Positions 5,491 to 34,084 of a stretch of DNA of 35,106 bases are shown here, one piece after another. Made by a program: the position numbers and the translations under genes. Origin of the DNA: Candidatus Moraniibacteriota bacterium (GTDB lineage Bacteria > Patescibacteriota > Minisyncoccia > Moranbacterales > DUUL01); contig JAWOGA010000060.1 of assembly GCA_046497225.1 (NCBI GenBank), positions 1 to 35,106 of the forward strand, in the 5' to 3' direction. The stretch's first letter is position 1; each line of letters begins with the position of its first letter. A model generated the notes under the pieces. The model did no database searches. It saw nothing but the letters and a program-made list of their open reading frames with translations, and was not told the origin of the DNA.

Positions 5491-5525
5491 GATTATTTGC
5501 TATTTGTTATTAGCAATTGGGGATT
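5491..5525. repeat. Degenerate heptamer tandem array
   Basis: gattatt tgctatt tgttatt agcaatt ggggatt (5 x NNNNATT) immediately after the stop at 5487. Confidence 0.7.
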
Positions 5526-5551
5526 TTGTTGCAGGTTAATAATAAATTTTT

Positions 5552-6142
5552 ATGAACAAAAAACAAGAGAAAATAAAGAACTTTTTAAGAGAGGCTGAAA
5601 AATTAAAACAAGTTAAAAGAAAAACCTATTTATCAAACAAGAAAGAACGAGAAAGCGCGGCTGAGCATAGCTGGGATTTGATTCTGATGGCAATGGCTCT
5701 GCAAGAATATTTTCCCAAAAAAGTTGAAACTCTGAAAATAATAAAAATTTTAGCTGTTCATGATTTAGCGGAAATTGACAACGGCGATGTGTTTGCATTG
5801 GATAAATCCCAAAAAGACAAAAAAATTAAACAAGAAAAAGAAGCTGCGGAGAGGATTTTTAATATTTTACCCAAAAACAAGAAATTGGAATTTTCAAGAT
5901 TATGGCAGGAATATGAAGAGGGCTCTTCCATAGAAGCCAGAGTTGCAAAGGCTATTGATAGAATGGCTCCTATTGCTCAATTCAATGCAAGCCAAGCAAT
6001 TGACAAAAAATTCAAAGTTAGCACCCAAGAATGCTACGATTATGCCATAGAGAGCATTAAAGAGTTTCCAAAATTGAAAAATTATTTTTTGGGGTTAATC
6101 AGGGAAACAGCGAAAATTAAAAAAGATAAAGTTGAATTTTAG
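5552..6142 (+). CDS. HD-domain phosphohydrolase (YfbR/HD_3-like)
   Basis: LKQVKR, ESAAEHSW, HDLAE..GD, LWQEYE, AKAIDR motifs. Confidence 0.88.
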   Translation: MNKKQEKIKNFLREAEKLKQVKRKTYLSNKKERESAAEHSWDLILMAMALQEYFPKKVETLKIIKILAVHDLAEIDNGDVFALDKSQKDKKIKQEKEAAERIFNILPKNKKLEFSRLWQEYEEGSSIEARVAKAIDRMAPIAQFNASQAIDKKFKVSTQECYDYAIESIKEFPKLKNYFLGLIRETAKIKKDKVEF

Positions 6143-6329
6143 TTTTAATGACAGGCGGGGGAGGGAATTTCAATAACAGAAATTTGACAAATAATGTTTT
6201 TTATTGTTAAATAAATCTTAATTCCCTATTTTTGGCATTTAGCAGGGAAGCGGGGATGAAATAGTTATTTGAAAAATCGATTAAAATGAAAAATTGGATT
6301 TGCATATTTGCAAATAAAGGAAGCGGCGG

Positions 6330-9825: not shown

Positions 9826-10272
9826 TTAATTTTTAAAACAACAACCAGCCGGTTGATAACCTTGATTTTTAGCTTCTTCTTCTGAGCTAAAACAAACTCT
9901 GTTTCCCGGCTTGATTTTTTCAGCCCAAGTGCAGGTTGAGGAGTGGTATTTATCTGAATTTTTAGAACCAACTAACTGGCATTCTTTATTTTCTTGTTTT
10001 TTATTTGCGTTTTCGATGTTTTCAGACACACCCTTTCTTTGAGCAGCTTCCCCTAGAGCCATTGCTTTTTCTTGCTTCGGGTTTGATGCTTCAATGTTAT
10101 TTAAGGAGACTTTGATTTGTTCTGTTTTTCTAGTCTTTTCTTTTGTTACTCCGGCTTGAAAACAAACAACGGCTATCAGAATAATTGCTAAAGTAAATAA
10201 GATTCTTTCTTCATTGTTTTTCCAAAAATTTATAGTTTTTTGCTTAAATTTTTCGAATGAATTATTTGACAT
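9826..10272 (-). CDS. Membrane-anchored protein with C-terminal Ada-like metal-binding domain
   Basis: One TM helix; VGSKNSDKYH...C..AEKIK..NRVCFSSEEEA...GY.PAGCC. Confidence 0.75.
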   Translation of the reverse strand: MSNNSFEKFKQKTINFWKNNEERILFTLAIILIAVVCFQAGVTKEKTRKTEQIKVSLNNIEASNPKQEKAMALGEAAQRKGVSENIENANKKQENKECQLVGSKNSDKYHSSTCTWAEKIKPGNRVCFSSEEEAKNQGYQPAGCCFKN

Positions 10273-10294
10273 AAGAATAAATTAATATTACAAT
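10266..10294 (+). promoter_or_regulatory. Near-consensus sigma70 promoter upstream of rpmA
   Basis: TTGACA-17 nt-TACAAT. Confidence 0.7.
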
Positions 10295-10473
10295 GATTTT
10301 TAGTGTTGTTGCAAGTTAAGCTTGTTTGTTTTTGCTGAACTTTTTGTTGGCAAACCTTGATTTGCTTTGGTTAATGTAGTAAAAAGCGACTTTGCAACAG
10401 TTTTAGTTTAATAATTATAACTTGCTTTTATTGAGATGCCAAGATTATCTCAGTTTAAGTTTGATTAAGTCAT

Positions 10474-14343: not shown

Positions 14344-14661
14344 TTATTCCGCTTTTTTTAATTCTTCCATAAGGGCTTCTTTGGATTGAACGCCCGTTAT
14401 TTGTTTAACAATTTCCCCGTCCTTAAAAATAATTAGAGTCGGAATGGACATAATTCCATACTTCTGAGCAATGGAAGAGTTTTCGTCAATATTAACTTTT
14501 CCTACTTTAGCTTTGCCTTCAACTTCTTCAGCCAATTCATCTATAATAGGGCCCATCATTTGGCAAGGACCGCACCAAGGCGCCCAGAAATCTACCAGCA
14601 CAGGCTTATCGCTTTTCAAGACCTCCTCTTCAAAATTATCCTCTTTAAATTCAATAGCCAT
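14344..14661 (-). CDS. trxA: Thioredoxin
   Basis: [15 protein letters not shown]. Confidence 0.97.
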
Positions 14662-14720
14662 ACAATAATATTAATTTTTATTTAACTAAATAATTATATT
14701 TTCAAATACTTAAATGCGTA

Positions 14721-15449
14721 TTACTTCCCCAGCCTCCTTTCTCTGTTGGCAAAATCTTCAAGTGCTTTTTTGAGTTCCGTTGCGTTAAAATCCGGAAAGA
14801 GCTTTTCTGAAAAATAGTATTGAGAGTTTTGTGTTTGCCACATTAAAAAACCGGCGCTGTTGTGAGGGTCATCTTCCACCCCTGTCCTTATTACAAGATC
14901 AACCGAGGGCAGTTTTGAACTTACCAGGTAACTTTGAAAAGCTTCTTTGTTCATCTTGAAATCACGTGCTTTATTACGAGCCTCTTTTTTAATTTCTTTC
15001 ACAGCATGAAGAATGTCATCATCCCCACTGTAAGCAAGTAAAAAATTCAGAAAACTGCCGGTGTGATTTTTGGTTTTTTCTATTCCCTCTTCCAGTATTT
15101 TTTTTAGCCTTTTTGGGAATTGTTCTTCCCAACGGCCAATTATTTGAATTTTTGTTTTATTTTCAAATATATCTGAACTATTAATAAGTTTCTTAAAATA
15201 TTCTTCATAAATCTTGAGAAGTTCCCTTTTTTCCTCAAAGGGCCTTTTGGTGAGATTATCTTTGGAGGAACCCCAAAAAGTAAGACTCTTAACTCCCATT
15301 TTTAGAGCTTCTTTGCTTAACTCTTCTATAGCCTCCGCGCCTGCTTTGTGACCTTTCCAGGGTTTCCTATCTCTTTTTTTGGCCCACCTCCTGTTGCCAT
15401 CAGGAATAATCGCCACATGGTAAGGCATTGATTTTTTGTTAAAATCCAT
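14721..15449 (-). CDS. uppS: cis-prenyltransferase / undecaprenyl diphosphate synthase
   Basis: HVAIIPDGNRRWA, GH..G, DLVIRTG, FLMWQ, RERRLGK. Confidence 0.92.
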   Translation of the reverse strand: MDFNKKSMPYHVAIIPDGNRRWAKKRDRKPWKGHKAGAEAIEELSKEALKMGVKSLTFWGSSKDNLTKRPFEEKRELLKIYEEYFKKLINSSDIFENKTKIQIIGRWEEQFPKRLKKILEEGIEKTKNHTGSFLNFLLAYSGDDDILHAVKEIKKEARNKARDFKMNKEAFQSYLVSSKLPSVDLVIRTGVEDDPHNSAGFLMWQTQNSQYYFSEKLFPDFNATELKKALEDFANRERRLGK

Positions 15450-16709: not shown

Positions 16710-16849
16710 AAAGTTATTTAAAAAAGTAAACTTAGAATTATTTTAGATTTGTAATATTGAAAAATCAAAAATTGCAATTCATTTAGACTTTGGCAATTTA
16801 TTTGTGTAATATCAATAAGCCAATAAGCTATAAGTTGCAAGCTAATTTG

Positions 16850-16921
16850 TGACCCCAAGGGGAGTCGAACCCCTGTTACCAGGATGAGAACCTGGCGTCC
16901 TAACCACTAGACGATGGGGCC
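16850..16921 (-). tRNA. tRNA-Glu (CTC), CCA not encoded
   Basis: GGCCCCATCGTCTAGTGGTTAGGACGCCAGGTT-CTC-ATCCTGGTAACAGGGGTTCGACTCCCCTTGGGGTCA cloverleaf. Confidence 0.96.
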
Positions 16922-16932: not shown

Positions 16933-16960
16933 TAACAGTTGACAACTCACAGTTAACGAC
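16933..16960. repeat. Degenerate heptamer array in the tRNA-Glu leader
   Basis: taacagt tgacaac tcacagt taacgac. Confidence 0.6.
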
Positions 16961-17042: not shown

Positions 17043-17131
17043 GGAATTGGCTATTTATTATTTGCTTTAAGCGAGTTAGCATTAATGAATATTGTTGGCG
17101 AGAAATTGCTAATTGCAAATAACAAATTGCG
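17043..17131. repeat. Inverted pair of heptamer arrays downstream of the CAP gene
   Basis: ggaattg gctattt attattt ... aattgct aattgca aataaca aattgcg. Confidence 0.6.
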
Positions 17132-17135: not shown

Positions 17136-17990
17136 TTATCTCCATTCATCGCAGTCTTCTATAAAGTCTTCGCATTCATCAAGATAATCTTCCAATTCCT
17201 CCTTTTTTTCTTCAAGTTTTTCTAAGCTCTCTATTGCTTCTTCCAAATCTTCTTCTTTTACTCCTTTGTCTTTAGCATCTTCCATAGCATCTTCTTGTTC
17301 TTCTATTAAATCGTCCAGCTCTCCCTCTCTTTTTTCTGCTTCTTCGCAATTTTTTCTGGATTCTTCCTCGCAAACGGTTTTATTTTTCAGATCTTCTTCA
17401 CCCATTGGTCTTCCAAAATGCTGTACCAGCATATAGCTTTTTTGTCCGTTTTGTTGAAAATCTAAAATAGCCACCCCGATTTCCTTAAATTTTTCCGATA
17501 AAATATTCTCCCTGTGTCCCTGACTATCCATCCATCCTTTGTGAGCGGATTCAGCCGAGAAAAAACCTTCGGCTAAATTTTCACCAAAGGTTTTGTACTG
17601 ATACCCTGATTTTTCCGCAAAATACCAAGGCTGAAGACCTTCCGGAGATGTGTGTTCAAAATAATCATTTTTCTTCATGTGTTGAGCTTTTTTCATGGCC
17701 GAAGCATTTAACTTAGTATTTTCTTCCAAGGGCTTCAAATTATTGCCTTCTCTCGCTTCATTGACTAATTGGATAATGTCCTCGCCGGTTCCATCAAAAG
17801 TTTTTTCACCGAAATCAACTGTGTCCCCATTTTCTCGTTGAACTCCTTCGTTGGAGGATTCCAAAGATTGAATTTCTGTTTTTGGTTTTGGGTCTACTGT
17901 TTTTAAGGCAAAATCTTCAAAGTCTACTAAAAAATAAGAAAGCCCCCCTAATACAGCCAGAAATAGTAACTGAAATATTCTTTTTGTCAT
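17136..17990 (-). CDS. CAP (SCP-like) domain protein with acidic C-terminal coiled coil
   Basis: N-terminal anchor; LVNEAR, KAQHM..NDYFEHTSP, GENLA, WMDSQGHRENIL, VQHFG. Confidence 0.9.
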   Translation of the reverse strand: MTKRIFQLLFLAVLGGLSYFLVDFEDFALKTVDPKPKTEIQSLESSNEGVQRENGDTVDFGEKTFDGTGEDIIQLVNEAREGNNLKPLEENTKLNASAMKKAQHMKKNDYFEHTSPEGLQPWYFAEKSGYQYKTFGENLAEGFFSAESAHKGWMDSQGHRENILSEKFKEIGVAILDFQQNGQKSYMLVQHFGRPMGEEDLKNKTVCEEESRKNCEEAEKREGELDDLIEEQEDAMEDAKDKGVKEEDLEEAIESLEKLEEKKEELEDYLDECEDFIEDCDEWR

Positions 17991-18619: not shown

Positions 18620-19684
18620 ATGAATTTACAAAAAATAGAAGAGATTAAAAAAGAATATGAGGAAATAAGAAAAGAACTGGAAAATCAGGATAATTTTTCC
18701 GACTCCGAGAAGATGAAAAAACTCAATCAAAGATTTAGCAATTTAGGGGAGATTGTTTCTAAGATTAATCAATGGGAAGACTTTAAACAACAACTTCAAG
18801 ATAATGAGGAAATAATTAACAATGAAAGCGATGAGGAATTGATAGAAATGGCCAAAGAGGAAAGTAAAGAATTGCAAAGTAAAATTGAAAACGTTGAAAA
18901 AAACCTGGAGCTTAGTTTGCTGCCCAAGGATCCTAATGATGAGAAAGATGTAATTATGGAAATTCGCGCCGGGGCCGGAGGAGATGAGGCCTGTCTTTTT
19001 GTGGGGGAATTATTCAGGATGTATTCCAAATATGCGGAAAACAATGGATGGAGAATTGAAATAGCCGATTCTCATGCTAATGAATTGGGAGGCTACAAAG
19101 AAATTATTTTTGAAGTTTCCGGAAAAGATGTTTACTCCAAATTGAAATTTGAATCAGGGGTGCATCGGGTACAGAGGGTTCCGGATACTGAGAAACAAGG
19201 CAGGGTGCACACTTCCACTATAACTGTAGCGGTTCTTCCTCAGGCTGAGCAAACTGATATTGAAATCAAGCCCGATGATTTAAGGATAGACACTTTTGCT
19301 TCTTCCGGACCGGGTGGGCAGTCTGTAAATACCACCAATTCAGCAGTTAGGATTACTCATCTTCCCAGCGGCGTAATTGTCTCTTGCCAAGATCAGAAAT
19401 CTCAAGGTCAAAATAAAGAAAAAGCTATGCAAATTCTTAGGTCTCGGCTTCTGGATAAAATAGAACAAGAAAAGAAGGAAAAGGAATCTAGCGAGAGGAA
19501 ACAGCAAATCGGAAGCGGAGACAGAAGTGAAAAAATCAGAACTTACAATTTTCCTCAAGATCGGATTACAGATCATCGCATTAAAAAAAGCTGGTCCAAT
19601 ATAGAAGAAATAATCAACGGACAGGTCGGGTTGATTATAAATAGTTTGCAAGAAGAAGAAATGAAACTTGCGACTAAATCCTAA
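18620..19684 (+). CDS. prfA: Peptide chain release factor 1
   Basis: EIRAGAGGDEA, ESGVHRVQRVPDTE (PxT), GPGGQSVN, IRTYNFPQ. Confidence 0.98.
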   Translation: MNLQKIEEIKKEYEEIRKELENQDNFSDSEKMKKLNQRFSNLGEIVSKINQWEDFKQQLQDNEEIINNESDEELIEMAKEESKELQSKIENVEKNLELSLLPKDPNDEKDVIMEIRAGAGGDEACLFVGELFRMYSKYAENNGWRIEIADSHANELGGYKEIIFEVSGKDVYSKLKFESGVHRVQRVPDTEKQGRVHTSTITVAVLPQAEQTDIEIKPDDLRIDTFASSGPGGQSVNTTNSAVRITHLPSGVIVSCQDQKSQGQNKEKAMQILRSRLLDKIEQEKKEKESSERKQQIGSGDRSEKIRTYNFPQDRITDHRIKKSWSNIEEIINGQVGLIINSLQEEEMKLATKS

Positions 19685-19822
19685 ATTCAAAATCCTAATG
19701 GCAAACTATGCCGCATAACGGGTCCCCATTGCCAATAAATTATCAAAAAGCGGCGGGAAATTTCAAATTATGAAAATTTGATTTGATTTATTGGTTTGAC
19801 GTTTGGATTTTGACATTTGTTA
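19671..19822. repeat. Heptamer-arm element between prfA and prmC
   Basis: Left arm cgactaa atcctaa attcaaa atcctaa tggcaaa (contains the prfA stop); right arm tttgacg tttggat tttgaca tttgtta. Confidence 0.75.
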
Positions 19823-19829: not shown

Positions 19830-20741
19830 ATGAATATAAATAAACTTCTCTATAGGTCTAAAAAAATTATAGCTAAAAAAAATCTTTATAGCTCGGATAT
19901 TGATGCCGAGATTCTTTTATCTCATATTCTCAATGTATCCCGCGAATATGTTTTAATTCATCCCGAACTTGAAATTTCCAAGGAAGAAGAAAGCCGATTT
20001 ATGGATTTGGTTGAAAGAAGATCCCAAGGTGAGCCGGTAGCTTATTTAACCGAGTATAAAGAATTTTGCGGATTAGAGTTTGAAGTAAACAAAAACACTC
20101 TAGTTCCCCGCCCCGAGACGGAGATTTTGGTAGAAAAAACTTTGGATTATATAGAAAATAATTTCAATAAAAAAGATAAGTTGCGAATCTTTGACATAGG
20201 AACCGGCAGTGGGTGTATTATTACTGCTATAGCTCAGGAATTAAAAAACCTTGGTTTTTCAAATGTTGGTTTTTGCGCCGGAGACATCTCGAAAGCGGCT
20301 CTCAATACAGCCCGAAAAAACACGCAAAATCACCTGGAAAAACAAGAGATTATTTTCAAACGCGGTGATTTATTAAATCCTTTTATTGAAGAGATTAAAG
20401 GCTTTGGCGAGAAAGACCAGTTAATTATTTTAGCCAATCTTCCCTACTTGTCCGAGACGATTTATCAAAATTCCCCTGGAGATGTTCGGAATTTTGAGCC
20501 GAAGCTTGCCCTGGAGGCCGGTAAAGACGGCTTAGATTACTATAAAAGGCTTTTGGATTATGTCAAAGAATATGATTTAGACAAAAAAACCGGCTCAACT
20601 TGCCTTTTCCTGGAAATTTCTCCGGAGCAAGCAGAAAAGATAAAGGAGGTTGTCAAAGACAACTTCCCTGAATCGGAAATTGAAATTTATAAGGACTTGG
20701 CGGAAAGAGATAGGATTGTTAGAATCTTGAATTTGGAATAA
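19830..20741 (+). CDS. prmC: Release factor glutamine methyltransferase
   Basis: GEPVAYL, LVPRPETE, DIGTGSGCI, ANLPY, FEPKLAL..GKDGLDYY; downstream of prfA; ATG 19830. Confidence 0.95.
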   Translation: MNINKLLYRSKKIIAKKNLYSSDIDAEILLSHILNVSREYVLIHPELEISKEEESRFMDLVERRSQGEPVAYLTEYKEFCGLEFEVNKNTLVPRPETEILVEKTLDYIENNFNKKDKLRIFDIGTGSGCIITAIAQELKNLGFSNVGFCAGDISKAALNTARKNTQNHLEKQEIIFKRGDLLNPFIEEIKGFGEKDQLIILANLPYLSETIYQNSPGDVRNFEPKLALEAGKDGLDYYKRLLDYVKEYDLDKKTGSTCLFLEISPEQAEKIKEVVKDNFPESEIEIYKDLAERDRIVRILNLE

Positions 20742-20746
20742 TAGAT

Positions 20747-20964
20747 GTAATTGGTAATTGGCTATTTGTAATTTGGAGTTTACTTTGCAAAAAATTCGAT
20801 TTTAATCCCTTTATTTTTTTGGTGGAATAGGATAAAATGAATACTAATGACTAATGGCAAAGCTCAAATGACAATTCAAATTCAAATTCCTAAATATCTA
20901 ATTATTCATTTTTATCATTGGAATTTTGAGCTTGATTTGACATTAAGGTTTTGACATTAAGGTT
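20747..20964. repeat. Three heptamer arrays between prmC and smpB
   Basis: gtaattg gtaattg gctattt gtaattt ggagttt (20747-81); atactaa tgactaa tggcaaa gctcaaa tgacaat (20841-75); ttgacat taaggtt x2 (20937-64). Confidence 0.75.
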
Positions 20965-20976
20965 TACTGGTTATAT

Positions 20977-21426
20977 ATGGGAAAATTGGCTATCAACAAA
21001 CGAGCAAGATTTGATTATGAAATCCTGGAAACTTTCGAGGCCGGTTTGGTATTGAAAGGATATGAAGTAAAGTCTATCAAGACTGGCAGGATATCTATTA
21101 AAGGGGCGTTTGTAACAATCAGGGGCGAAGAATTGTATCTAACTAATGCCAACATTCCTCTCTACCAACATGCCGGAATTGTCGCCGATTACAATCCTTC
21201 TGCTCCCCGTAAGCTTATTTTACACAAAAAAGAGATCAAAAGATTAATTGGAAAAGCCAGAACCGAAGGCTTGACATTAGTACCTCTTTCAGTGTATAAT
21301 AAAAAGAATCTGATAAAGCTGGAATTTGCCTTAGCGAAGGGAAAAAAGCAACGAGATAAACGTGAAAATATCAAGAAAAGAGAGGAAAAAAGAAGAGTGG
21401 AAAGGATGATGAAAAATGTAAATTAA
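20977..21426 (+). CDS. smpB: SsrA-binding protein
   Basis: NKRARFDYEILETFEAGLVLKGYEVKS, RKLILHKKEI, GKKQRDKR. Confidence 0.98.
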   Translation: MGKLAINKRARFDYEILETFEAGLVLKGYEVKSIKTGRISIKGAFVTIRGEELYLTNANIPLYQHAGIVADYNPSAPRKLILHKKEIKRLIGKARTEGLTLVPLSVYNKKNLIKLEFALAKGKKQRDKRENIKKREEKRRVERMMKNVN

Positions 21427-21440
21427 TATTTTGAATTTAT

Positions 21441-21471
21441 TTAGAATTTAGGATTTTGAGTTTAGGATTTA
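21441..21471. repeat. Heptamer array directly upstream of tmRNA
   Basis: ttagaat ttaggat tttgagt ttaggat. Confidence 0.75.
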
Positions 21472-21478: not shown

Positions 21479-21875
21479 GGGGGTGTCGTGGATTCGACAG
21501 GTTGTGTTATTTGAAATCTGCAAGCCAAGTTATTGCATCTTGTAAAACTGCAATCCAAAAATAAGTGCAAACTTATTCGATAGAGCAAAAAGTGCTTTAG
21601 CTACGGCTTTTGCGCCTAAATTTGCTGCTGCTGTAGCTTAACAAATAGCTTCAGCCCGTCGACCGACTGATTCTCGATAGGTCGTACTCGGCGTCAACAT
21701 CGAGATGCAGCTCATTGTTTTCTCTTGGCATTGAGTCAAGTAACCTCAAGAGAGGGTCCGGTTATTGTTTTGTTTGTTTTTAGATAATCGGACTTAAACC
21801 AAAAACAAACTAAGCTTGTAGAAGGTTTCAAAATTCCAACACTGGACATGGGTTCAACTCCCATCACCTCCACCA
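21479..21875 (+). ncRNA. ssrA: tmRNA
   Basis: 5' GGGGGTG..GGATTCGAC; 3' GGTTCAACTCCC..CACCTCCACCA with G3.U pair; tag ORF 21567-21641 ANLFDRAKSALATAFAPKFAAAVA*; adjacent to smpB. Confidence 0.96.
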
Positions 21876-25317: not shown

Positions 25318-26739
25318 ATGAAAAAGAAAAGGAAAAAAATTCAAATTCAACTTTTACTCTTGTTCGTTCTTCTGTTGCCTTTTAGCTTTAGGCATATTTT
25401 TAATTATGAAAATATTGTTGAATTGGAGTTTTTTAAAGAAAGCGTATCTTTATCTTTTTATCTTTTTGATGCAGTTTTTTTGCTGCTTTTGTGGGAATGG
25501 ATTGTACAAATATCAGGAGGCGCGGTAATTCCTTCTTTTTTGAGTTTATTAAAAAAGTTCAGGGTTAATTTTTGGAAAAATTGGCCTTTTTGGCTTCTTG
25601 TTTGTTTTTTGGCTTGGTCAATTTTGTATGTTTCTCAACATCCTTTCCCCGCTCTATATTTAAGCGCCAGACTGTTTCAAGGGATTGCCGTTTTTATTAT
25701 AGCCGGCAAATTATTGGCGCAAAAAGCTGAGTATTTTCAAAAAGTGGCGTACGTGATTTTTATTTCCGGTGTTTTTCAGGCAATTATGGGTCTTGGACAA
25801 TTTCTTTTTCAAAAATCTTTAGGACTAGTTATTCTGGGTGAAAGCAAAATTGCCCCGGATATCCTCGGCGTAGCTAAATTTGAGCTTGCCGGGGAAAAAT
25901 TTATTAGAGCTTATGGAACATTTCCCCACCCTAATTTATTTGGAGCTTTTTTGTTTTTGTCGCTGGTTTGCGGACTGAGCTTTTTGTTTTTTCAGCAAAG
26001 GAAAATTCCTTTTAGCTTTAACTTTCCCGGAAAAAACAAATTAAAATGGATAAAAATCAGCAAGGAAAAACTTTCTTTAATTCATTATTCAGCCGGTTTG
26101 TTGCTGATTTTCTTAGGAATTTTGGTGAGTTATTCCAGAAGTGTTTGGTTGGTTTCTTTTGTCATTACCCTTTTAATTTTTTGGAAATATTTTAAGCAAT
26201 TTTCAAGGGAATACCTAAGAGAAAATCTCTTTAAAAAAACGAAAATTATTTTTGTAATTATTCTTGTTGTATTGTTGGGAGCGGGAGTTTATCAAGCGGT
26301 TTCTCCGCGTTTATGCTTGGATGATTGCGCGGGAGATCAATCTTTTTCATTGAGGCAAAAATATACTCATTTTGCTTTAGAAAAGATTGATGATTATGAC
26401 TATTTCGGTTTAGGATCGGGTAATTTTGTTTTGCATATGAACAATGAAAAACCTTTTGATTTAAAGGAATGGGAAATTCAGCCTGTTCATAATCTTTATT
26501 TATTAATTTTAGTTGAGATTGGGTTGGTTGGTTTCTTGTTCTTGTTTTTTGTGGTTTTTAGTTATTTAAAAAGGTTTAACAAAATTTCAGGAATTTGGAA
26601 TAAAACGGGCTTTTATGCGCTTCTTGGTTTTTTGATACTTGGGTTCTTTGATCATTATTTCTGGACAACGCCGCAAGGCATTATCATTTTTTGGCTTGCC
26701 CTTGCATTAATTGCAGGATCTTGTAAAATGGAAGAATAA
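25318..26739 (+). CDS. O-antigen ligase / Wzy_C family polytopic membrane protein
   Basis: Multiple TM helices; RAYGTFPHPN, SYSRS, GLGSGNF, PVHNLYLLILVEIGLVG, DHY. Confidence 0.85.
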   Translation: MKKKRKKIQIQLLLLFVLLLPFSFRHIFNYENIVELEFFKESVSLSFYLFDAVFLLLLWEWIVQISGGAVIPSFLSLLKKFRVNFWKNWPFWLLVCFLAWSILYVSQHPFPALYLSARLFQGIAVFIIAGKLLAQKAEYFQKVAYVIFISGVFQAIMGLGQFLFQKSLGLVILGESKIAPDILGVAKFELAGEKFIRAYGTFPHPNLFGAFLFLSLVCGLSFLFFQQRKIPFSFNFPGKNKLKWIKISKEKLSLIHYSAGLLLIFLGILVSYSRSVWLVSFVITLLIFWKYFKQFSREYLRENLFKKTKIIFVIILVVLLGAGVYQAVSPRLCLDDCAGDQSFSLRQKYTHFALEKIDDYDYFGLGSGNFVLHMNNEKPFDLKEWEIQPVHNLYLLILVEIGLVGFLFLFFVVFSYLKRFNKISGIWNKTGFYALLGFLILGFFDHYFWTTPQGIIIFWLALALIAGSCKMEE

Positions 26740-26766: not shown

Positions 26767-29439
26767 ATGAGAAAAAAACAAGAGCTTTCTAAAAACTACA
26801 ACTCCAAGGAGTACGAAGAAGATATTTATAAAAAATGGAAAGAAGGCGGCAATTTTAAGCCGGAAAATTTAGACTTGCCTAAAGATGCCGAGAATTATAC
26901 CATTGTTCTTCCTCCTCCCAATATTACAGACCGACTTCATTTGGGGCATTCTTCTATGCTGGCGATTGAAGACTTGATGATTAGATTTCACCGAATGAAG
27001 GGATTCAGAACTCTCTGGATTCCCGGTACTGATCATGCGGCTATCGCTACTCAAAATGTAGTAGAGAAAAAACTTTTGAAAGAAGAGGGTTTGACACGCC
27101 ACGACTTGGGAAGAGAAAAATTTCTTGAAAAAGTATGGGAGTTTTTGAATGAAACGCAAGCTACTATTTTGAAACAAACCAAAAGAATGGGCGCGAGTTT
27201 AGATTGGTCCAGAAATGCTTTTACTTTGGATAAACAAAGAGAAAAAGCGGTTAGAAAAATGTTTGTGGATATGTACAACGCCGGCGTAATTTACAGAGGG
27301 GAGAGAATTGTTAATTGGTGTCCTCGCTGTCATTCAACCTTGGCTGATGATGAAATTGAATACAAATCTCAAAATGCTAAGCTTTATACTTTTAAATACG
27401 ATAAAGACTTCCCTATTTCCATTTCTACGACTCGTCCGGAGACTAAGCTTGGAGACACAGCCGTAGCGGTTAATCCCGAAGACAAACGCTATAAAAAATA
27501 TATTGGAAAAACTTATAAAGCTAATCTTTGCGGGATTGGGCTTGATATCAAAATAATTGCCGATAAATCCATCGATATGGAGTTCGGAACCGGGGCGCTT
27601 GGTGTGACCCCCGCCCATTCTATGGTTGATTGGCAAATGGCTCAGACAAACGACTTGCCGATTAAGAAAGTTATCAACGAAGACGGGAATATTTATCCTG
27701 AATTTGGAGAATTTGGAGGGAAAACGGCAAATGAGGCAAGAAAGGCAATCGTTGATTATCTGAAGAAAAATAATCTGCTGGAAGAAGAAGAGGAAATTGA
27801 AAATAATTTATCTGTTTGCTACCGGTGCGACACCCCTATTGAGCCGCTCCCATCCAAGCAATGGTTTATTTCGGTGGATAAAAAACTGGATTTTCTTGGC
27901 GGAAAATCTTTGAAAGAAAAAGGATTGGAAGTTGCAAAAAACAACGAAATTGAATTTATCCCGGATAGATTTTACAAAAAATACACTCACTGGATGGAAA
28001 ATCTTCACGATTGGTGTATTTCCAGGCAGATTTGGTTTGGGCACAGGATTCCGGTTTGGTATAAAAAAGAGAATCAAGGGGCAATAATCAAGGGGCAAGG
28101 CGAAATTTATGTTAGCGAAAAAATGCCTAAAGAAGATGGCTGGGTTCAGGATCCGGATACGCTGGACACTTGGTTTTCTTCGGGAATGTGGACTTTTTCC
28201 ACTCTTGGCTGGCCGGATAATTATAAGAATGATGAAAAAACCGGGGATTTGGCAAAATTCCATCCCACTCAAGTATTGGAAACCGGTTATGAGATTCTTA
28301 CTCTCTGGGTTTCCAGGATGATTATGATGTCTTTGTTTGCCTTGCGGGAAATTCCTTTTGAAAAGGTTTATTTGCATGGAATGGTGCTGGACAAGGAGGG
28401 TAAAAAAATGAGTAAATCCAAAGGAAACGGCATTGATCCGGTGGAGATGATTGAAAAATATGGAGCGGATGCGGTTCGGCTTTCCCTGTTGATTGGAAGC
28501 ACGCCGGGAAATGATATTAGAATGTCGGAAGAGAAAATCGAAGGATTTAGAAATTTTGTTAACAAGCTTTGGAATATCGCCAGATTTGTAATGCAAAATG
28601 ATTTGAATCAAGAAAGTATAAAAGAACAAGATTGCAGTTTGGCCGATAAATGGATTTTAAGCAAAATGCATGATTTGGTAGAAGAAACCAGTAAAGATTT
28701 GGAAAATTATAGGTTTTCCCAAGCGGGGGAAAGATTGAGAGAGTTTACCTGGGGGGAGTTTGCCGATTGGTATTTAGAGGTAGGCAAGGTTGAAAAAAAT
28801 CAAACCAAAAACAGGATTATGTATCATATTTTAAGCGATTTATTAAAACTTTGGCATCCTTTTATTCCTTTTGTTACCGAAGCAATTTGGCAAAACCTGG
28901 AGCCGGACAGCAAGAGATTGATTGTTCAAGAATGGCCTAAAAAGGATAAATATCAAGTCTTTAAAGATCAGGGCAAGGAATTTGAAATTATTAAATCCGC
29001 CATTTCTGTTATCAGAAGAGGAAGATCTCAATATAATCTACCCCCTAAACAAGAAATAAAAGTTATTATTTACAGTCAAAATCATAGAGATTTGATTTTA
29101 GAAAATGCTGATATTATAAAAAATTTGCAGACAAATATTAAAAGCTTGAATGTTGAAAAACAAGGAGAAAAAATTACCCAAGCTTTTTATGAGAATATTG
29201 GGAATTTAGAAGTTTATATTCCATTAAAAGGAATTGTTGATATTGATAAAGAAAAAGAGAGACTAAAAAAAGAATTAGAAAAAACAAACAATTTTTCAAA
29301 AAGCTTAGAAAATAAACTTTCCAATAAAAAATTCACGCAAAATGCTCCTCAAGAAATTATTGAGAAAGAAAAAGAAAAATACAAACAACAACAATTTAAA
29401 TTAAAAGAATTAAAAGATCAAATTAAGAATCTTGAGTAA
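26767..29439 (+). CDS. valS: Valine--tRNA ligase
   Basis: PPPNIT, HLGH, GTDHAAIATQ, DWCISRQIWFGH, DTWFSS, KMSKS, C-terminal coiled coil. Confidence 0.98.
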   Translation: MRKKQELSKNYNSKEYEEDIYKKWKEGGNFKPENLDLPKDAENYTIVLPPPNITDRLHLGHSSMLAIEDLMIRFHRMKGFRTLWIPGTDHAAIATQNVVEKKLLKEEGLTRHDLGREKFLEKVWEFLNETQATILKQTKRMGASLDWSRNAFTLDKQREKAVRKMFVDMYNAGVIYRGERIVNWCPRCHSTLADDEIEYKSQNAKLYTFKYDKDFPISISTTRPETKLGDTAVAVNPEDKRYKKYIGKTYKANLCGIGLDIKIIADKSIDMEFGTGALGVTPAHSMVDWQMAQTNDLPIKKVINEDGNIYPEFGEFGGKTANEARKAIVDYLKKNNLLEEEEEIENNLSVCYRCDTPIEPLPSKQWFISVDKKLDFLGGKSLKEKGLEVAKNNEIEFIPDRFYKKYTHWMENLHDWCISRQIWFGHRIPVWYKKENQGAIIKGQGEIYVSEKMPKEDGWVQDPDTLDTWFSSGMWTFSTLGWPDNYKNDEKTGDLAKFHPTQVLETGYEILTLWVSRMIMMSLFALREIPFEKVYLHGMVLDKEGKKMSKSKGNGIDPVEMIEKYGADAVRLSLLIGSTPGNDIRMSEEKIEGFRNFVNKLWNIARFVMQNDLNQESIKEQDCSLADKWILSKMHDLVEETSKDLENYRFSQAGERLREFTWGEFADWYLEVGKVEKNQTKNRIMYHILSDLLKLWHPFIPFVTEAIWQNLEPDSKRLIVQEWPKKDKYQVFKDQGKEFEIIKSAISVIRRGRSQYNLPPKQEIKVIIYSQNHRDLILENADIIKNLQTNIKSLNVEKQGEKITQAFYENIGNLEVYIPLKGIVDIDKEKERLKKELEKTNNFSKSLENKLSNKKFTQNAPQEIIEKEKEKYKQQQFKLKELKDQIKNLE

Positions 29440-29938: not shown

Positions 29939-29981
29939 TAACTTATAAATATAATAATTTAAAAATTAAAAAATAAATTTT

Positions 29982-30626
29982 ATGCCAAAACAAAAGAAGT
30001 CTTTTTTCGAAAAACTTACCGGCATTCAAAAAGTTGATGAAGACGATGAAGAGATTCAAGTAACCAACAACCCCGCCTCTTTTGCTGATCGAGAAGAATT
30101 TGAGGAAGATCAGGAAGAAATGTATGAATTTCCTGAAGATGGCGAAGATGAAACTCAGGAGCAGTATGATGATTTTCAGGAAAGTGATTTTGAGGATGAA
30201 TACGAAGATGACTATGAAGAAGAGCCTCCAAAAAAGCAACGAGAGCCGGTAAATAAAGCCCCTGTTGCGTCCGAAGATGAAAATCAAGCAGATTCAGAGG
30301 GTCAATTAACCATAGATGTTTATCAAAACGATAGAGAAATTGTAATAAAATCAACTATAGCCGGAGTTAAACCAGAAGATTTGGATGTCAATATCAATGA
30401 TGAAATGGTTACTATTAAAGGAAAAAGGGATCAGGGAGAAGAGGTTGATCCGGAGAATTATTATTACCAGGAATGTTATTGGGGACCTTTCTCCAGAACT
30501 ATCATTCTTCCGGTGGAAATAGTAACTGATAAAGCCGAGGCGTTAATGAAGAATGGTATTTTAACCATAAAATTACCTAAGGCCGAATCTACCAAAACCA
30601 GGAAGCTTCAAGTTAGAGGATTTTAA
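29982..30626 (+). CDS. Hsp20/alpha-crystallin small heat-shock protein with long acidic N-terminus
   Basis: IDVYQ, IAGVKPEDLDV, VTIKGKR, GPFSRTIILP, A.MKNGILTIKLPK. Confidence 0.92.
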   Translation: MPKQKKSFFEKLTGIQKVDEDDEEIQVTNNPASFADREEFEEDQEEMYEFPEDGEDETQEQYDDFQESDFEDEYEDDYEEEPPKKQREPVNKAPVASEDENQADSEGQLTIDVYQNDREIVIKSTIAGVKPEDLDVNINDEMVTIKGKRDQGEEVDPENYYYQECYWGPFSRTIILPVEIVTDKAEALMKNGILTIKLPKAESTKTRKLQVRGF

Positions 30627-30690: not shown

Positions 30691-30750
30691 ATCTAAAAAA
30701 TATTTAGTAAGATTTATTGTAAAGTTATTGCGATTGTAATAAGCAGATAT

Positions 30751-32118
30751 ATGAAGGTAGTGTTCACTAAAAAAGAAAAATTATTTTTGCTGATTTTTTT
30801 AACCTCAGCAGCTTTTTCGGGGCTAAGTAGTTCTTCTTTGGCTGAGGAGGAATTGGATTATTTGGGAAATTATAACAACAAAGATCTTCAAACTATTATT
30901 GAAAAGCCTTTTTATTTGTATAGCGAAAATAAAGATTCCCCAATTTTATTTTATCTGAAGGACTTTATAGATTGGCAATACTCCCTGAAAAAAGATTTTG
31001 ATTATGTCTCAGAAATCGAAAATCCTTTTTATTGTGGCGAACAGGCCAAAAATGAACCTTTTTGTTTTATATCGGAAACCTTTGAACAAAAAGTTCACTA
31101 CAAAAAAATCAACAAGATATCTTTAAAAAAACAAGAAACAAAAGAATACTTGCAAAATATTTCCAGTGATATTAACAGAGAGCCTAAAAATGGAAAATTC
31201 GAGTTTGTAAAAGATGATAAAAAATTGAAAGTTTTAGAAAAAAGCAAAAAGGGCATTGCCCTAAAAGTAGATAAAAGCTATAAAAAAATAAAAAATAACC
31301 TTGTTGAAAATAGCGAAACTTCTTATATTCCTTTAGAGGTGAGCCTCCAGGAGCCGGATATATCAACCCAGAATCCGGAAAAGTATGAAATCAAAAAAGA
31401 GATGGGTGAGGGAGAATCTGGTTTTCATGGCTCCACCGATACCAGGGTTCACAACATTAAAACAGCAGCTTCCAGGTTTCACGGCTTGGTTTTGAAACCG
31501 GGAGAGGTTCTTTCTTTTGTTGAAACTCTAGGTGAAGTTAATGAAAAAACCGGATATGAGGAAGAACTTGTTATTAAAAAGAATAAAACGGTGCCGGAGT
31601 TTGGGGGAGGTATTTGCCAAGTTTCAACGACAATGTTTAGAGCCGGATTGAATGCAGGTTTGGAAATTACGGAAAGGCATAATCATTCTTACCCCGTTCA
31701 CTACTATGACCCGCCCGGCACTGATGCTACTGTTTATATCCCAAAGCCTGATTTGAAAATAAAAAACACCACTGACAATTATTTGCTTATTCAAACTGAA
31801 ATGGAAGAGCAAGACGAAGAATTTTTTATTTATTTTTATTCCAAGGATGATCCTTATGAAGTTGAAATTATTGGCCCCGAAGTAACAGAAAGAACTCCGG
31901 AGGGAAGAATTCGTACTAAACTAGAACAGGTAGTTAAAAATAAAAACGGAGAAGAAATAAGAAAGGATGTTTTCAAGAGTTTTTATGACAACCCTGATAA
32001 CTATCCCAATCCGGATGATATTTTTACTGAAAAACCGGAGGATTGGTCTAATAAAGAGTGGGGAGAATATTATGAGAAGTTCGGTCCGATGATTGAGCAA
32101 TTAAAAAAGGAGGATTAG
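30751..32118 (+). CDS. VanW family exported protein
   Basis: Signal peptide; RVHNI, KPGEVLSF...LG, GGGICQVSTTMFRA, ERHNHSY, GTDATV, DLKIKN. Confidence 0.9.
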   Translation: MKVVFTKKEKLFLLIFLTSAAFSGLSSSSLAEEELDYLGNYNNKDLQTIIEKPFYLYSENKDSPILFYLKDFIDWQYSLKKDFDYVSEIENPFYCGEQAKNEPFCFISETFEQKVHYKKINKISLKKQETKEYLQNISSDINREPKNGKFEFVKDDKKLKVLEKSKKGIALKVDKSYKKIKNNLVENSETSYIPLEVSLQEPDISTQNPEKYEIKKEMGEGESGFHGSTDTRVHNIKTAASRFHGLVLKPGEVLSFVETLGEVNEKTGYEEELVIKKNKTVPEFGGGICQVSTTMFRAGLNAGLEITERHNHSYPVHYYDPPGTDATVYIPKPDLKIKNTTDNYLLIQTEMEEQDEEFFIYFYSKDDPYEVEIIGPEVTERTPEGRIRTKLEQVVKNKNGEEIRKDVFKSFYDNPDNYPNPDDIFTEKPEDWSNKEWGEYYEKFGPMIEQLKKED

Positions 32119-32161
32119 AAAATCTAATTAGCCAGGAATTGCTATTGTTGTCTAAAAATTT

Positions 32162-34084
32162 TTATTTTTTCAGAACCTCCAAAAATGCTTTTTGTGGAAT
32201 ATCCACTTTTCCGGATTGAACCATCTTTTTCTTTCCCTTCTTTTGTTTTTCCAAGAGTTTTCTTTTTCTGGTTACGTCTCCTCCATAGAGCTTGGCGGTA
32301 ACGTCTTTTCTGAAGGCTTTAATATTTTCCCTGGCGAGGAAATTACTACCCACGGCAGCTTGAAGCTTTATCTGAAAATTTTGTCTCGGGATAACATCTT
32401 TTAATTTTTTTACAATTTTTCTGCCCTCGGCTTGGGCATTTTTTTGGTGGACTACTTGAGAAAATGAATCAACCCTCTCTTCTGCTACATAGATATCCAA
32501 CCTAACTAAATCTGCCGGGCGATAATCGGTTATTTCGTAACTGAAAGAGGCAAAACCGCTGGTTGCCGATTTAATGTTATCATGAAGATTGATAACGATG
32601 TCGGCCAAGGGCGCGTCAAATATTAAATTAACTCTATCTTCATCCAGATAATCAGTAGAAAGGTAATTGGCTCTGGTGGTGGATTGAGTTACTTCCATAA
32701 TGTCTCCGATAAATCTGGCGGGTGTTATTATTTCCAGTTTTGCTCTAGGCTCCCTTGTTTCTTGAATTTCTGTTTTATCCGGCATTTCCGAAGCCGAGTA
32801 TATTTTTTGGATTTTTCCGTCTGTTTTTTCAATTTCATAAACTACACTGGGCGTGGTTATAACCGGAGAAAAGCCAAATTCTCTGGAAAGCCTTTCTTTG
32901 ACTATCTCCAGATGTAACACTCCCAAGAAACCTATCCTAAAGCCTCTTCCTAGAGCTGGTGAGCTCTCGCCTTCAAAGTCTAATGCGGAATCGTTTAACT
33001 TTAATTTTTCTAAAGCATCTCTGAATTGATTGTAGTCTTCTCCTTCAGCCGGGTAAAAGCTGGCGTACATCATTGGCCGAATTTCTCGGTACCCCTCGAG
33101 AGCTTTGACTGGATTTTGATTGTTTTCATTTAGCATTTGATTTCTAGCATTTGAGTTTTTCGTAATAGTGTCTCCCACCTTGCATTGCTCCACGCTTTTT
33201 AGCCCGGTAGCTATATAACCAATTTCCCCCGTCTCTAATCCTCCTGTGGATTTAAGATCCGGAGAGAACTTCCCTACTTCTATAGCATGCGCCTCTTTTC
33301 TCCCTCTCATTAAATAAATTTTATCCTCTCTTTTAATTGATCCGTCAAAAATTCTTACAAAAGCCAAAACTCCTTTGTAAGAATCATATTTAGAATCAAA
33401 GATCAAGGCTCTTAGTGGAGCATTTTTAATGATTTTTGGCGCAGGAATCCTTTCTACTATGGCGTTCATTATATCCTCAACCCCTTCCCCGCTCTTTCCG
33501 CTAGCCAAAATTATTTCCTCTTCTTTGCAGCCCAAAAGATTTTTTAATTCGGTTTTAGTTTTTTCCACATCAGCATTCGGCAAGTCAATCTTGTTTACTA
33601 CCGGTATTATTTCCAGATCTTGCTCTAGAGCCTGGTATAAATTGGCTAAAGTTTGAGCTTGAATTCCTTGAGTACAGTCTACCAGTAAAATTGCTCCTTC
33701 CACTGCCTTCAAGGAACGAGAGACTTCATAGCCGAAATCAACATGCCCGGGAGTATCTATCAAATTGAGAGTGTAGCTCTCAATTTCGAATGAGCTTGCA
33801 ATGCCTGCATTTCTATTATCTTTCTCTTTAAATTTTTCACTGCCATCTTGATTTTTGATTTTTGATTTTTGATTTTGAATCTCATATTTCATGGTTACCG
33901 GCTGCAACTTGATCGTTATCCCCCTCTCCCTTTCCAAATCCATAGTGTCCAAAAGCTGGTCTTTCATTTTCCGGCCTTCAATGGTTTTAGTCATTTCTAG
34001 CATCCGATCAGCTAGCGTGGACTTGCCGTGATCTATATGAGCGATGATGCAAAAATTTCGAATATAATTGTCTTGCTTGTTCAT
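32162..34084 (-). CDS. lepA: Elongation factor 4 (LepA) with two in-frame insertions
   Basis: IRNFCIIAHIDHGKSTLADR, ERERGITIK, DTPGHVDF, NKID, GFLGVLH, KDVTAKLYGGDVTRKRKLLEKQKKGK. Confidence 0.98.
   Translation of the reverse strand: MNKQDNYIRNFCIIAHIDHGKSTLADRMLEMTKTIEGRKMKDQLLDTMDLERERGITIKLQPVTMKYEIQNQKSKIKNQDGSEKFKEKDNRNAGIASSFEIESYTLNLIDTPGHVDFGYEVSRSLKAVEGAILLVDCTQGIQAQTLANLYQALEQDLEIIPVVNKIDLPNADVEKTKTELKNLLGCKEEEIILASGKSGEGVEDIMNAIVERIPAPKIIKNAPLRALIFDSKYDSYKGVLAFVRIFDGSIKREDKIYLMRGRKEAHAIEVGKFSPDLKSTGGLETGEIGYIATGLKSVEQCKVGDTITKNSNARNQMLNENNQNPVKALEGYREIRPMMYASFYPAEGEDYNQFRDALEKLKLNDSALDFEGESSPALGRGFRIGFLGVLHLEIVKERLSREFGFSPVITTPSVVYEIEKTDGKIQKIYSASEMPDKTEIQETREPRAKLEIITPARFIGDIMEVTQSTTRANYLSTDYLDEDRVNLIFDAPLADIVINLHDNIKSATSGFASFSYEITDYRPADLVRLDIYVAEERVDSFSQVVHQKNAQAEGRKIVKKLKDVIPRQNFQIKLQAAVGSNFLARENIKAFRKDVTAKLYGGDVTRKRKLLEKQKKGKKKMVQSGKVDIPQKAFLEVLKK

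Follow-up and report, generated by a model that had tools for sequence, protein, structure and literature searches.

Heptamer arrays of a patescibacterial genome as candidate arms of an IVS-like hairpin insertion family

Arrays of tandem units of about 7 nt lie between and within genes of the window, by which we mean the whole 35,106-nt stretch of DNA that was analysed. We consider it probable, though well short of certain, that these arrays belong to a large family of hairpin insertions with rapid turnover that resemble the IVSs of 23S rRNA, and represent arms that lack cargo or stand alone. In a full element, 3-10 tandem units of ~7 nt would form the 5' arm, followed by a small cargo gene and a reverse-complementary 3' arm. 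The gene product would be an S23p/PF05635 four-helix bundle; in other genomes it can instead be a GxxExxY protein of the PD-(D/E)XK type. Cargo-less hairpins or single surviving arms would make up most copies in the window's genome and every copy in the window. The first-pass annotation had suggested that the arrays could be empty copies of IVS-like elements, and that reading is supported.

Period-7 arrays across the genome

The source assembly (here G000) comprises 0.96 Mb and belongs to the Patescibacteria (Parcubacteria/Moranbacteria-like). Across its ORF-free DNA (153,761 nt, delimited by crude, ORF-based gene calls) base identity was 0.3211 at lag 7, compared with 0.3088 at lag 6, 0.3118 at lag 8 and 0.2948 at lag 7 in shuffles (z 25.6); a second autocorrelation peak fell at lag 14. 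With a threshold of at least 17 of 21 self-matches, 81 period-7 arrays were detected versus 1.6 in Markov simulations, while other periods yielded 1-18 arrays and period 14 yielded 31. At a threshold of at least 16 of 21 there were 136 arrays versus ~7 simulated, with 14-37 at other periods. The same preference was seen at 29 smpB loci (60 period-7 arrays versus 6 of period 6 and 15 of period 8) and at 80 LepA loci (38 versus 3-13 at other periods). The 7-nt period proposed from the window is therefore real, genome-wide and period-specific, well above shuffled background.

The first-pass annotation had also placed the arrays at gene boundaries, often in inverted pairs. Intergenic DNA, 16% of the genome, does hold 107 of the 136 arrays, with 21 coding, 8 straddling and 13 located in rRNA genes, but intergenic arrays are only weakly drawn to gene ends (42 at most 30 nt away versus 32.6 +/- 4.5 expected). 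Inverted partners, defined by a local alignment score of at least 18 within 2 kb, were found for 24/136 arrays versus 6/136 in a unit-permuted control. "Often" nevertheless overstated their frequency: the majority of arrays are unpaired, 37 have a direct partner, and a cruder consensus-unit test for inverted pairing showed no excess (4.19 versus 4.14).

Arrays of the window

Thirteen arrays had been listed as heptameric, of which only about 5-7 are convincing and four are 14-nt repeats or weak. Those with period 14 rather than 7 are 20937-64, 28071-98, 16933-60 and 33124-58. Seven further arrays are weak (5491-5525, 17104-31, 19671-705, 20841-75, 21441-68, 19795-822 and 17043-63) and outrank all but 0.2-1.3% of genome intervals of equal length. 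Our own scan of the window found 7 arrays with at least 15 of 21 matches, versus ~2 expected by scaling the genome-wide simulation. Likeness to the cassette arms of other genomes went beyond ~97% of null segments for five of the 13 listed arrays and was not above null segments for the other eight. With 11 of 13 individually weak, four of these lacking a lag-7 excess, and window folds near shuffled background, the listed arrays might be taken for chance patterns in AT-rich intergenic DNA. The genome-wide, period-specific excess and the counts at smpB and LepA loci make this very improbable. For the family as a whole that excess refutes chance, which may still account for single weak members such as 16933-60 and 28071-98.

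The weak array 5491..5525 (strand unassigned) starts 4 nt past the stop of a C39-peptidase gene and matches at 18 of 28 positions at lag 7 (15/21 in our scan); no partner arm was found, and its cassette-arm likeness was not above null segments (0.10). At 20746..20781 (plus strand), 6 nt past the prmC stop, a solo GTAATTG array is good (20747-81, 21/28 at lag 7; cassette-arm likeness 0.013). Two congeners, G001 and G002, keep a like array (GTAATTC/GCAATTG) there, after an extra ~0.7-0.9 kb absent from the window. An imperfect 14-nt repeat at 16933..16960 (minus strand; 11/21 at lag 7, 11/14 at lag 14) closely precedes tRNA-Glu (16849-16921, minus strand), and a similar sequence adjoins tRNA-Glu in G002 too. 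It has no cassette-arm likeness (0.91) and is probably not a family member. The tandem 14-nt duplication at 28071..28098 (plus strand; 13/14 positions identical, 10/21 at lag 7) lies inside valS, where alignment with solved ValRS revealed no real insertion; it too lacks cassette-arm likeness (0.25) and is probably unrelated to the array family.

Three cargo-less elements have paired arms. The first, 17043..17131 (minus strand), lies past the stop of a CAP-domain gene (17136-17990, minus strand) and consists of arms 17043-63 and 17104-31 around a ~40-nt spacer, with an inverted alignment score of 13; the matching site in G002 carries CATTGTT and AACAATG as an inverted pair. The second, 19671..19822 (plus strand), fills the prfA-prmC spacer with an A-rich arm (19671-705, CCTAAAT-type units), a ~90-nt spacer that contains a GC-rich hairpin, and a T-rich arm (19795-822; inverted score 17). 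Its 5' arm resembles an arm of the G002 cassette L149_603400 with a score of 20, reached by 0/150 null segments, and the prfA-prmC spacer of G002 itself holds a different element with CAAGATA arms. The third, 20841..20965 (plus strand), upstream of smpB, has an A-rich arm at 20841-89, a ~30-nt spacer and a 3' arm at 20920-65 (inverted score 19), the latter including a perfect 14-nt duplication at 20937-64 (6/21 at lag 7, 14/14 at lag 14). All three pairs of arms are paired in the predicted folds, which are at best weakly better than shuffles (z +0.3, -2.1 and -1.2 in the order given). Between smpB and tmRNA (21479-21875) lies a solo T-rich arm of ATTTAGG/ATTTAGA units at 21438..21471 (plus strand; 14/21 at lag 7 in 21441-68) that resembles a G002 cassette arm (score 17, 0.013). 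In this spacer G001 has the same units and G002 a different element.

Such positions could suggest functional host sites, either tandem sites for regulator binding or RNA hairpins serving as terminators, processing sites or stabilisers of mRNA, selected at gene boundaries, with the cassettes incidental. Arrays fill operon spacers in the prfA-prmC-smpB-tmRNA region and, on contig C54, the atpB-atpE and atpE-atpF spacers; the GTAATTG and ATTTAGG arrays hold place and unit type between congeners, and there is the slight excess near gene ends. Judging from excerpts of the respective papers, similar proposals have been published for TAACTGA repeats in Beggiatoaceae, Cyanobacteria and Bacteroidetes (PMC4679880) and for heptanucleotide sets in Geobacter (PMC2700814). 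However, the 136 arrays comprise 59 canonical units, too varied for one binding protein, the gene-end bias is weak, the same spacers in congeners carry unrelated elements or none, and a role as gene-boundary signal is impossible for copies in protein loops, RNase P RNA and rRNA. We therefore regard selected host sites as improbable.

Copies in proteins and stable RNAs, and full cassettes

Arrays had been proposed to lie inside essential genes, which holds for LepA, with two insertions relative to solved LepA 2ywe, and not for ValRS. The larger, an in-frame insertion of about 29-34 residues at 33779..33883 (minus strand; lepA residues 69-102), contains in its 5' part the perfect array 33848-75 (21/21), (AAATCAA)x4 = (TTGATTT)x4, which translates to KSKIKNQ-type residues. 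Inserts occupy this loop in 16/81 LepA sequences. The smaller, of ~11 residues at 33119..33160 (minus strand; residues ~310-320), coincides with the weak 14-nt periodicity of 33124-58 (12/28 at lag 7); at this site 10/81 LepA sequences have inserts of at least 6 residues, some of them GC-rich palindromes. Another in-frame copy lies in LeuRS on contig C65. These copies occupy surface loops of LepA and LeuRS, where the arms would be translated as hydrophilic linkers.

At the residue 69-102 loop, inserts in different genomes have unrelated units and no common family consensus. The loop holds other arrays in G001 and G002, whose insert starts with (AAGTCAA)n + AGCCACAACTCAAA, which is the arm type of G002 intergenic cassettes; a composite arm of AAGTCAA repeats + AGCCACAACT... 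recurs at several loci, including inside lepA. Four genomes have a GxxExxY domain at this loop, and a whole such domain (TIGR04256 7e-34, PF13366 2.5e-32) lies there between inverted arms. Among 16 GxxExxY copies located, 14 have inverted flanks scoring at least 30.

The 23S rRNA on contig C36 contains a cargo-less armed hairpin of ~180 nt (~1354-1518) at model positions 572-600, a hairpin that we take to be helix 25 from the E. coli sequence. This insert (z -7.7) and one in P12 of RNase P RNA (z -6.3) were each more stable than all of 200 shuffles, and the same armed hairpin type is present in 16S rRNA. In RNase P genes of 28 relatives, arrays occur in 6/9 of at least 527 nt versus 1/19 of at most 458 nt. 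G000 has an RNase III gene (C82:4422-4814). By analogy with 23S rRNA IVSs, transcribed arms may pair into a stem of at least 21 bp that RNase III could cut, so that the element would be removed from stable RNAs or would separate cistrons, at small cost to the host.

The first-pass annotation had suggested that similar arms flank four-helix-bundle genes, and had noted none in the window; we likewise found no PF05635 gene there. The sole one in G000 (C34:17763-18077, 9e-39) is preceded by GATTTAT/GATTTAA units and followed by TTAAATC units. A PF05635 ORF is present in 26/31 genomes of the order, and the closest solved protein is Xanthomonas S23p 2gsc (4e-20); the four-helix-bundle S23p protein is a pentamer. 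The suggested link was borne out: inverted flanks scoring at least 30 (median 48) surround 33/45 PF05635 genes in G000 and relatives, kin cassettes that are not independent and include the duplicates L147_1402 and L148_360887, compared with 13% (median 21) of 300 mismatched flank pairs. Strongly periodic flanks (39/90) had period 7 in 29 cases, 8 in 7, 9 in 2 and 10 in 1. A lag-7 array of at least 16/21 adjoined at least one side of 17/28 PF05635 genes inspected and both sides of 8/28; by the same measure, 85 of all 924 ORFs of G000 have arrays on one or more sides and 6 on both. The genes are co-oriented with the upstream gene in 38/41 cases and with the downstream gene in 41/43. Beyond the phylum, an excerpt of PMC4990558 describes a 23S IVS in which 2-3 tandem heptamers (GACAGAT) precede the S23p ORF, their copy number varies between strains, and RNase III cuts at the first repeat; six of eight inspected plasmid copies of the S23p gene (cyanobacterial/Bacteroidota) directly adjoin lag-7 arrays of at least 16/21 and one further copy has period-8 arms. 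Sense-strand G-U mismatches between arms were not in excess over A-C (73 versus 86), and thus give no sign of selection on an RNA stem.

Congeners vary at syntenic sites between a complete cassette, arms without cargo, and no element at all, which is the presence/absence variation among relatives that had been anticipated for orthologous loci. Where G002 has seven of its cassettes, G000 has spacers of 63-141 nt, four without an array, one with cargo-less inverted arms and two weak, while the site of G000's own cassette holds nested cargo-less arms in G002. No S23p pseudogene remnants were found beside G000 arrays, so the "empty" copies show no visible sign of having decayed from full ones. Target-site duplications were not seen between congeners only ~70-77% identical, at which element boundaries are unreadable, and non-systematic inspection identified no cognate transposase or RAYT.

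A rather unlikely but more serious alternative is that the arrays are plain heptanucleotide microsatellites, which would form and erode on the spot at any tolerant site as the replicative polymerase of this lineage slips preferentially by 7 nt, with small genes landing in them or being retained beside them. Most G000 arrays are solo, their units are very diverse, and differing units recur in one tolerant LepA loop. Head-to-tail units occur (33848-75), and an array in a multicopy region differs between two copies by an indel of 16 nt (2 x 8); most arrays are degenerate. Heptamer number in the 23S IVS of PMC4990558 likewise varies between strains. In the plasmid copy from Pseudanabaena the arrays on both sides are direct, not inverted, which fits insertion into a pre-existing repeat. 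Slippage leaves unexplained, however, the reverse-complementary arms around two gene families (33/45 and 14/16), the missing arms at 4/7 empty syntenic sites, the composite arm shared by several loci, and the presence or absence of whole 130-180-nt hairpins in RNase P RNA and 23S rRNA. We thus favour the hairpin insertion family, in which whole-unit slipped-strand mispairing would lengthen, shorten and diversify the arms.

Comparison with known systems

IVSs of 23S rRNA classically occupy helix 25 or 45 as an extended stem-loop replacing the loop. The present elements share with those of Coxiella, Leptospira, Xanthomonas and others the terminal inverted repeats forming a stem around a four-helix-bundle ORF, one cargo-less copy in the helix-25 hairpin and, as described in the excerpt of PMC4990558, variable-number tandem heptamers before the ORF. 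The C36 copy lies in a terminal 23S hairpin, unlike those of the window (spacers, lepA); the 23S and RNase P copies and 33/45 cassettes have a long stable stem, weak in the window; and an S23p ORF lies in the loop of the C34 cassette, with none in the window. Unlike IVSs, dozens of copies are dispersed outside 23S (spacers, RNase P RNA, 16S rRNA, LepA, LeuRS), mostly without an ORF, and the arms are almost wholly tandem units.

STRR repeats are known from heterocystous cyanobacteria and have a few defined unit sequences. Here too tandem 7-nt units occur mainly intergenically at many loci per genome, as they do for Xanthomonas GGGAATC, TAACTGA and the Geobacter sets. Convergent inverted pairs are frequent in such systems, numbering 70-75 for GGGAATC in the excerpt of PMC4692102, and on cyanobacterial plasmids heptamer arrays directly flank four-helix-bundle genes. 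In contrast, the host here is a Patescibacterium, with shorter, more degenerate arrays and AT-rich units that show much greater variety within a single genome. The literature that we found on dispersed heptamers draws no link to S23p genes.

Rickettsia palindromic elements lie in frame at surface positions of essential protein genes, as well as in RNA genes and spacers, with a conserved family consensus and neither tandem-unit arms nor cargo genes. The in-frame palindromic inserts at tolerant sites (LepA 69-102 and ~310-320; LeuRS) resemble them, but the copies share period and layout, not sequence. The first-pass comparisons with STRR and with these elements are apt as analogies. MITE, REP, BIME and Correia elements are likewise short, non-autonomous inverted-repeat elements in spacers, often within operons, and vary in presence among relatives. 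The arms studied here vary from copy to copy, in contrast to elements with ends recognised by a single transposase, and the cargo protein has a four-helix-bundle or a PD-(D/E)XK fold.

Taken together, 23S IVSs with an S23p ORF and dispersed heptamers were both already known, and the elements described here would, from their sequences, represent a variant that is dispersed outside rRNA and mostly without an ORF.

Period-7 arrays in the genome and the window

In the 963,086-nt genome to which the window belongs (89 contigs, 36.6% GC; the window is contig C16), identity of ORF-free DNA with itself at a 7-nt offset was 0.3211, compared with 0.3088 at lag 6, 0.3118 at lag 8 and 0.2948 in shuffled sequence (z 25.6), with an echo at lag 14. 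Arrays with at least 17/21 self-matches numbered 81 at period 7, against 1.6 in simulations and 1-18 at other periods, and a threshold of at least 16/21 gave 136 against 7 simulated, indicating that the dispersed heptamer family noticed in the first-pass annotation is genuine and genome-wide. The same period prevailed at 29 smpB loci, with 60 period-7 arrays (6 at period 6, 15 at period 8), and at 80 LepA loci, with 38 (3-13 at other periods).

Using gene boundaries from crude ORF calls, 107 of the 136 arrays were placed in intergenic DNA (16% of the genome), 21 in coding sequence and 8 astride a boundary; rRNA genes hold 13. The further proposals that arrays hug gene ends and form inverted pairs survive in reduced form. 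The positional bias was only weak (42 vs 32.6 ± 4.5 expected), and an inverted partner within 2 kb was present for only 24/136 arrays, compared with 6 in the control. The latter count comes from a local-alignment test that replaced a consensus-unit test, by which inverted neighbours of this genome's arrays showed no excess (4.19 vs 4.14).

The window carries the housekeeping genes gltX, rpmA, pyrG, rplI, trxB, uppS, rpmE, prfA, prmC, smpB, infC, rplT, valS and lepA, together with tRNA-Glu, tmRNA and three further tRNAs. Of the 13 arrays first listed there, one matches lag 7 perfectly and one well; another seven match weakly, and the remaining four repeat every 14 nt with no lag-7 excess. Two unlisted weak period-7 stretches (15/21; 29949-29983 and 26539-26566) were also seen, one in an AT-rich spacer before an Hsp20 gene and one within an O-antigen-ligase-like gene. 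The duplication at 20937-64 contains TTGACA, but on inspection by eye its distance from the start codon did not suit a promoter, and that reading was set aside.

Cassettes around four-helix-bundle genes

The first-pass annotation had suggested that similar arms flank four-helix-bundle genes, and this link is borne out: inverted flanks scoring at least 30 enclosed 33/45 PF05635 genes, compared with 13% of mismatched controls. Such a cassette comprises a 5' arm of tandem ~7-nt units, a small cargo gene and a reverse-complementary 3' arm. The cargo is either an S23p (PF05635) gene, whose product is a pentameric four-helix bundle related to the DGR accessory protein Avd, or a GxxExxY (PF13366) gene of the PD-(D/E)XK fold. 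By eye, nearly all of 28 PF05635 loci (30 minus two with in-frame stops; G002:C1:64-363 was also left out) have mutually reverse-complementary tandem-unit arms on both sides, with a repeat unit that differs from copy to copy. Strongly periodic flanks had period 7 in 29 of 39 cases. The PF05635 gene lies on the same strand as its upstream neighbour in 38/41 instances and as its downstream neighbour in 41/43, and the 5' arm is only weakly purine-biased (23/33, mean 0.57).

A PF05635 gene is present in 26/31 genomes of the order, with 19 copies in the congener G002. The window's genome has a single one, at C34:17763-18077, with GATTTAT/GATTTAA units upstream and their complement downstream. A search of this genome for S23p pseudogene remains recovered the intact gene alone; the next match had E 0.027 (contig C1), and no remains were found beside its arrays. 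For five window arrays, likeness to the cassette arms of other genomes exceeds that of ~97% of null segments.

Comparison of orthologous loci revealed that occupancy varies between the window's genome and G002, which are syntenic at ~70-77% identity, a site holding a cassette, cargo-less arms or no array. Seven G002 cassettes face mere 63-141-nt spacers in the window's genome, four of them without an array, one with cargo-less inverted arms and two weak, and the site of the C34 cassette is occupied in G002 by nested cargo-less arms. The arms in the prfA-prmC spacer are CCTAAAT-type in the window's genome and CAAGATA-type in G002; upstream of tmRNA, the window's genome and the congener G001 share an arm that is replaced in G002; and the GTAATTG array after prmC is retained in all three. 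A scan of metagenome contigs with PrmC for strain-level relatives yielded only 6 loci, at 30-48% identity, and the best-matching public sequencing run contained just 0.28 of the sampled words.

Other sequences were also noted in these genomes. Between prmC and smpB, G001 (L003:~430-1300) and G002 (L151:~14490-15130) share a conserved, partly GC-rich segment of ~0.7-0.9 kb that is missing from window 20741-20977; neither a convincing ORF nor an Rfam match (E<=0.01) was found in it, and it could be an unknown structured RNA. At L151:~10040-10300 in G002, a partial tRNA-Glu and its upstream repeat are duplicated beside the intact gene. A multicopy ~165-nt element, not heptameric, is bounded by two hairpins, GCTGCTG...CAGCAGC at its start and AGGGGCAGC...GCTGCCCCT at its end. 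It occurs in the window's genome at C44:1658-1821, C85:14676-14846, C51:8595-8752, C86:1938-2090 and C43:1678-1871. The G002 copy, at L151:2839-3001, is an insertion between the orthologues of window 9811 and 9829, which in the window are separated by an 18-nt spacer. Across congeners the element is 82-87% identical and their genes ~70-77%. Tiny GC-rich palindromes, e.g. TCCCGAGTACTCGGGA and CCCCGTAAAGTCGC...ACGGGG, are nested in AT-rich heptamer elements (the G001 lepA insert, L223; G002 cassettes L144 and L149; the helix-25 insert in 23S rRNA of the window's genome, C36 ~1420-1450) and also occur in the C43 copy of the ~165-nt element; we take them to resemble the small dispersed repeats described inside Nostoc heptamer repeats.

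Copies within stable RNAs and protein genes

The 16S gene of the window's genome is 2,011 nt long (the model has 1,533 positions), its two 23S pieces carry ~1,300 nt extra, and its RNase P RNA measures 757 nt against 367 model positions. A 23S rRNA hairpin, taken to be helix 25 of the E. coli sequence, contains a ~180-nt armed hairpin (fold z -7.7), and P12 of the RNase P RNA contains one of ~130 nt (fold z -6.3). Across 28 relatives RNase P RNA ranges from 362 to 715 nt, with arrays in 6/9 genes of at least 527 nt and 1/19 of at most 458 nt; one further apparent array was a stretch of masked N. The window's genome encodes RNase III. In its RNase P gene (L160; C77:580-1336), a near-identical pair of ~130-nt armed hairpins stands 427 nt apart. 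One is in P12; the other, close to the 3' end, could be genuine or an assembly artefact of the 4.1-kb contig. Adjoining the 16S gene are an ORF with, by eye, a LAGLIDADG-like N-terminus (C89:4477-4917, minus strand) and a group II intron D1-D4 match (C89:4926-4995).

The suggestion that arrays lie inside essential genes held for LepA, where both arrays fall in insertions relative to a solved LepA, and failed for ValRS. At the LepA loop containing the window's (AAATCAA)x4, 16/81 LepA sequences have inserts of at least 6 residues, five of which show lag-7 identity of 0.62-0.63 with a different unit in each. This loop in G001 and G002 carries (AAGTCAA)n plus AGCCACAACTCAAA, the same arm type as in G002 intergenic cassettes; LepA of another genome, G007, lacks an insert there. 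A complete GxxExxY domain sits between inverted arms at the same loop in locus L042 and genomes G008, G012 and G018, and G015 has a GxxExxY domain in LeuRS. Inverted flanks scoring at least 30 surround 14/16 located GxxExxY copies, a count that omits 10/26 loci not located by the motif filter. PF13366 was not found in the window's genome, which is 92% complete. By eye, its LeuRS (C65:2085-4415, minus strand) contains the in-frame heptamer-coded stretches KNQESRIKNQ and QDTRRKIQDTNKLQITNYK; another segment, marked by a GHSLGS-type motif, resembles an inserted alpha/beta-hydrolase domain.

Origin of the arrays and comparison with known repeats

Taken together, we suggest that the window arrays are probably cargo-less or solo arms of cassettes like the 23S rRNA intervening sequence (IVS). 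Against this, no insertion mechanism was found, arm sequences differ between copies, the majority of arrays are unpaired, arm mismatches show no sense-strand G-U excess (73 vs 86), and the window hairpins fold weakly. The main rival is that plain 7-nt slippage produced the arrays by itself. Slippage is surely part of array dynamics, because alignment of two copies of a ~300-nt region (C2:230-620 and C77:200-560) revealed a 16-nt (2 x 8) indel; as the sole cause, set beside the inverted flanks and variable occupancy, we consider it unlikely. This multicopy region terminates a repeated gene and contains 9- and 8-nt arrays, then heptamer arrays.

To our knowledge, neither a function nor an origin has been established for IVS elements and S23p genes since they were first described, and heptanucleotide repeats in cyanobacteria and other bacteria likewise lack an explanation; the present results tie the two together. 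On this reading, the elements form a family that spans the whole of an ultrasmall genome and turns over fast, with members inside rRNA and RNase P RNA and, preserving the reading frame, inside translation factors and tRNA synthetases. The resulting picture, in which arms and cargo run in the direction of host transcription, is testable, and it suggests where expanded protein loops and RNA helices in Patescibacteria come from and why such assemblies break at these repeats.

Querying 72,556 plasmids by tblastn with the PF05635 protein of the window's genome returned 35 records, mostly from heterocystous cyanobacteria. Lag-7 arrays (at least 16/21) directly adjoin 6 of 8 copies inspected, one other having period-8 arms and one none; in the Pseudanabaena copy the arrays are direct, not inverted. 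Armed four-helix-bundle genes lie within plasmid CRISPR-Cas operons of Pseudanabaena (L233) and Picosynechococcus (L234), between cas6 and cas4 and between cas10 and cmr3, on the strand of the cas genes and with spacers of 36-215 nt.

As described in PMC4990558, a 23S IVS has terminal inverted repeats, with 2-3 strain-variable heptamers ahead of the S23p ORF, and is cut by RNase III at the first repeat. PMC4692102 reports heptamer over-representation, a slippage hypothesis and 70-75 inverted heptamer pairs in Xanthomonas; the terms S23 and four-helix are absent from that paper. PMC4679880 and PMC2700814 describe further unexplained heptamer sets. In the open-access literature we found no paper linking dispersed heptamers to S23p genes, nor one on dispersed heptamers in Patescibacteria. 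We tentatively raise the possibility, speculative as it is, that STRR of Nostocales, TAACTGA repeats of Beggiatoaceae, Cyanobacteria and Bacteroidetes, GGGAATC pairs of Xanthomonas and the arrays described here are traces left by a single ancient class of hairpin cassette, whose cargo, an S23p or GxxExxY nuclease-fold protein, would recognise or help build the 7-nt-period arms. Such cassettes might insert wherever DNA is transcribed, even within rRNA and RNase P RNA genes and the coding regions of essential proteins.
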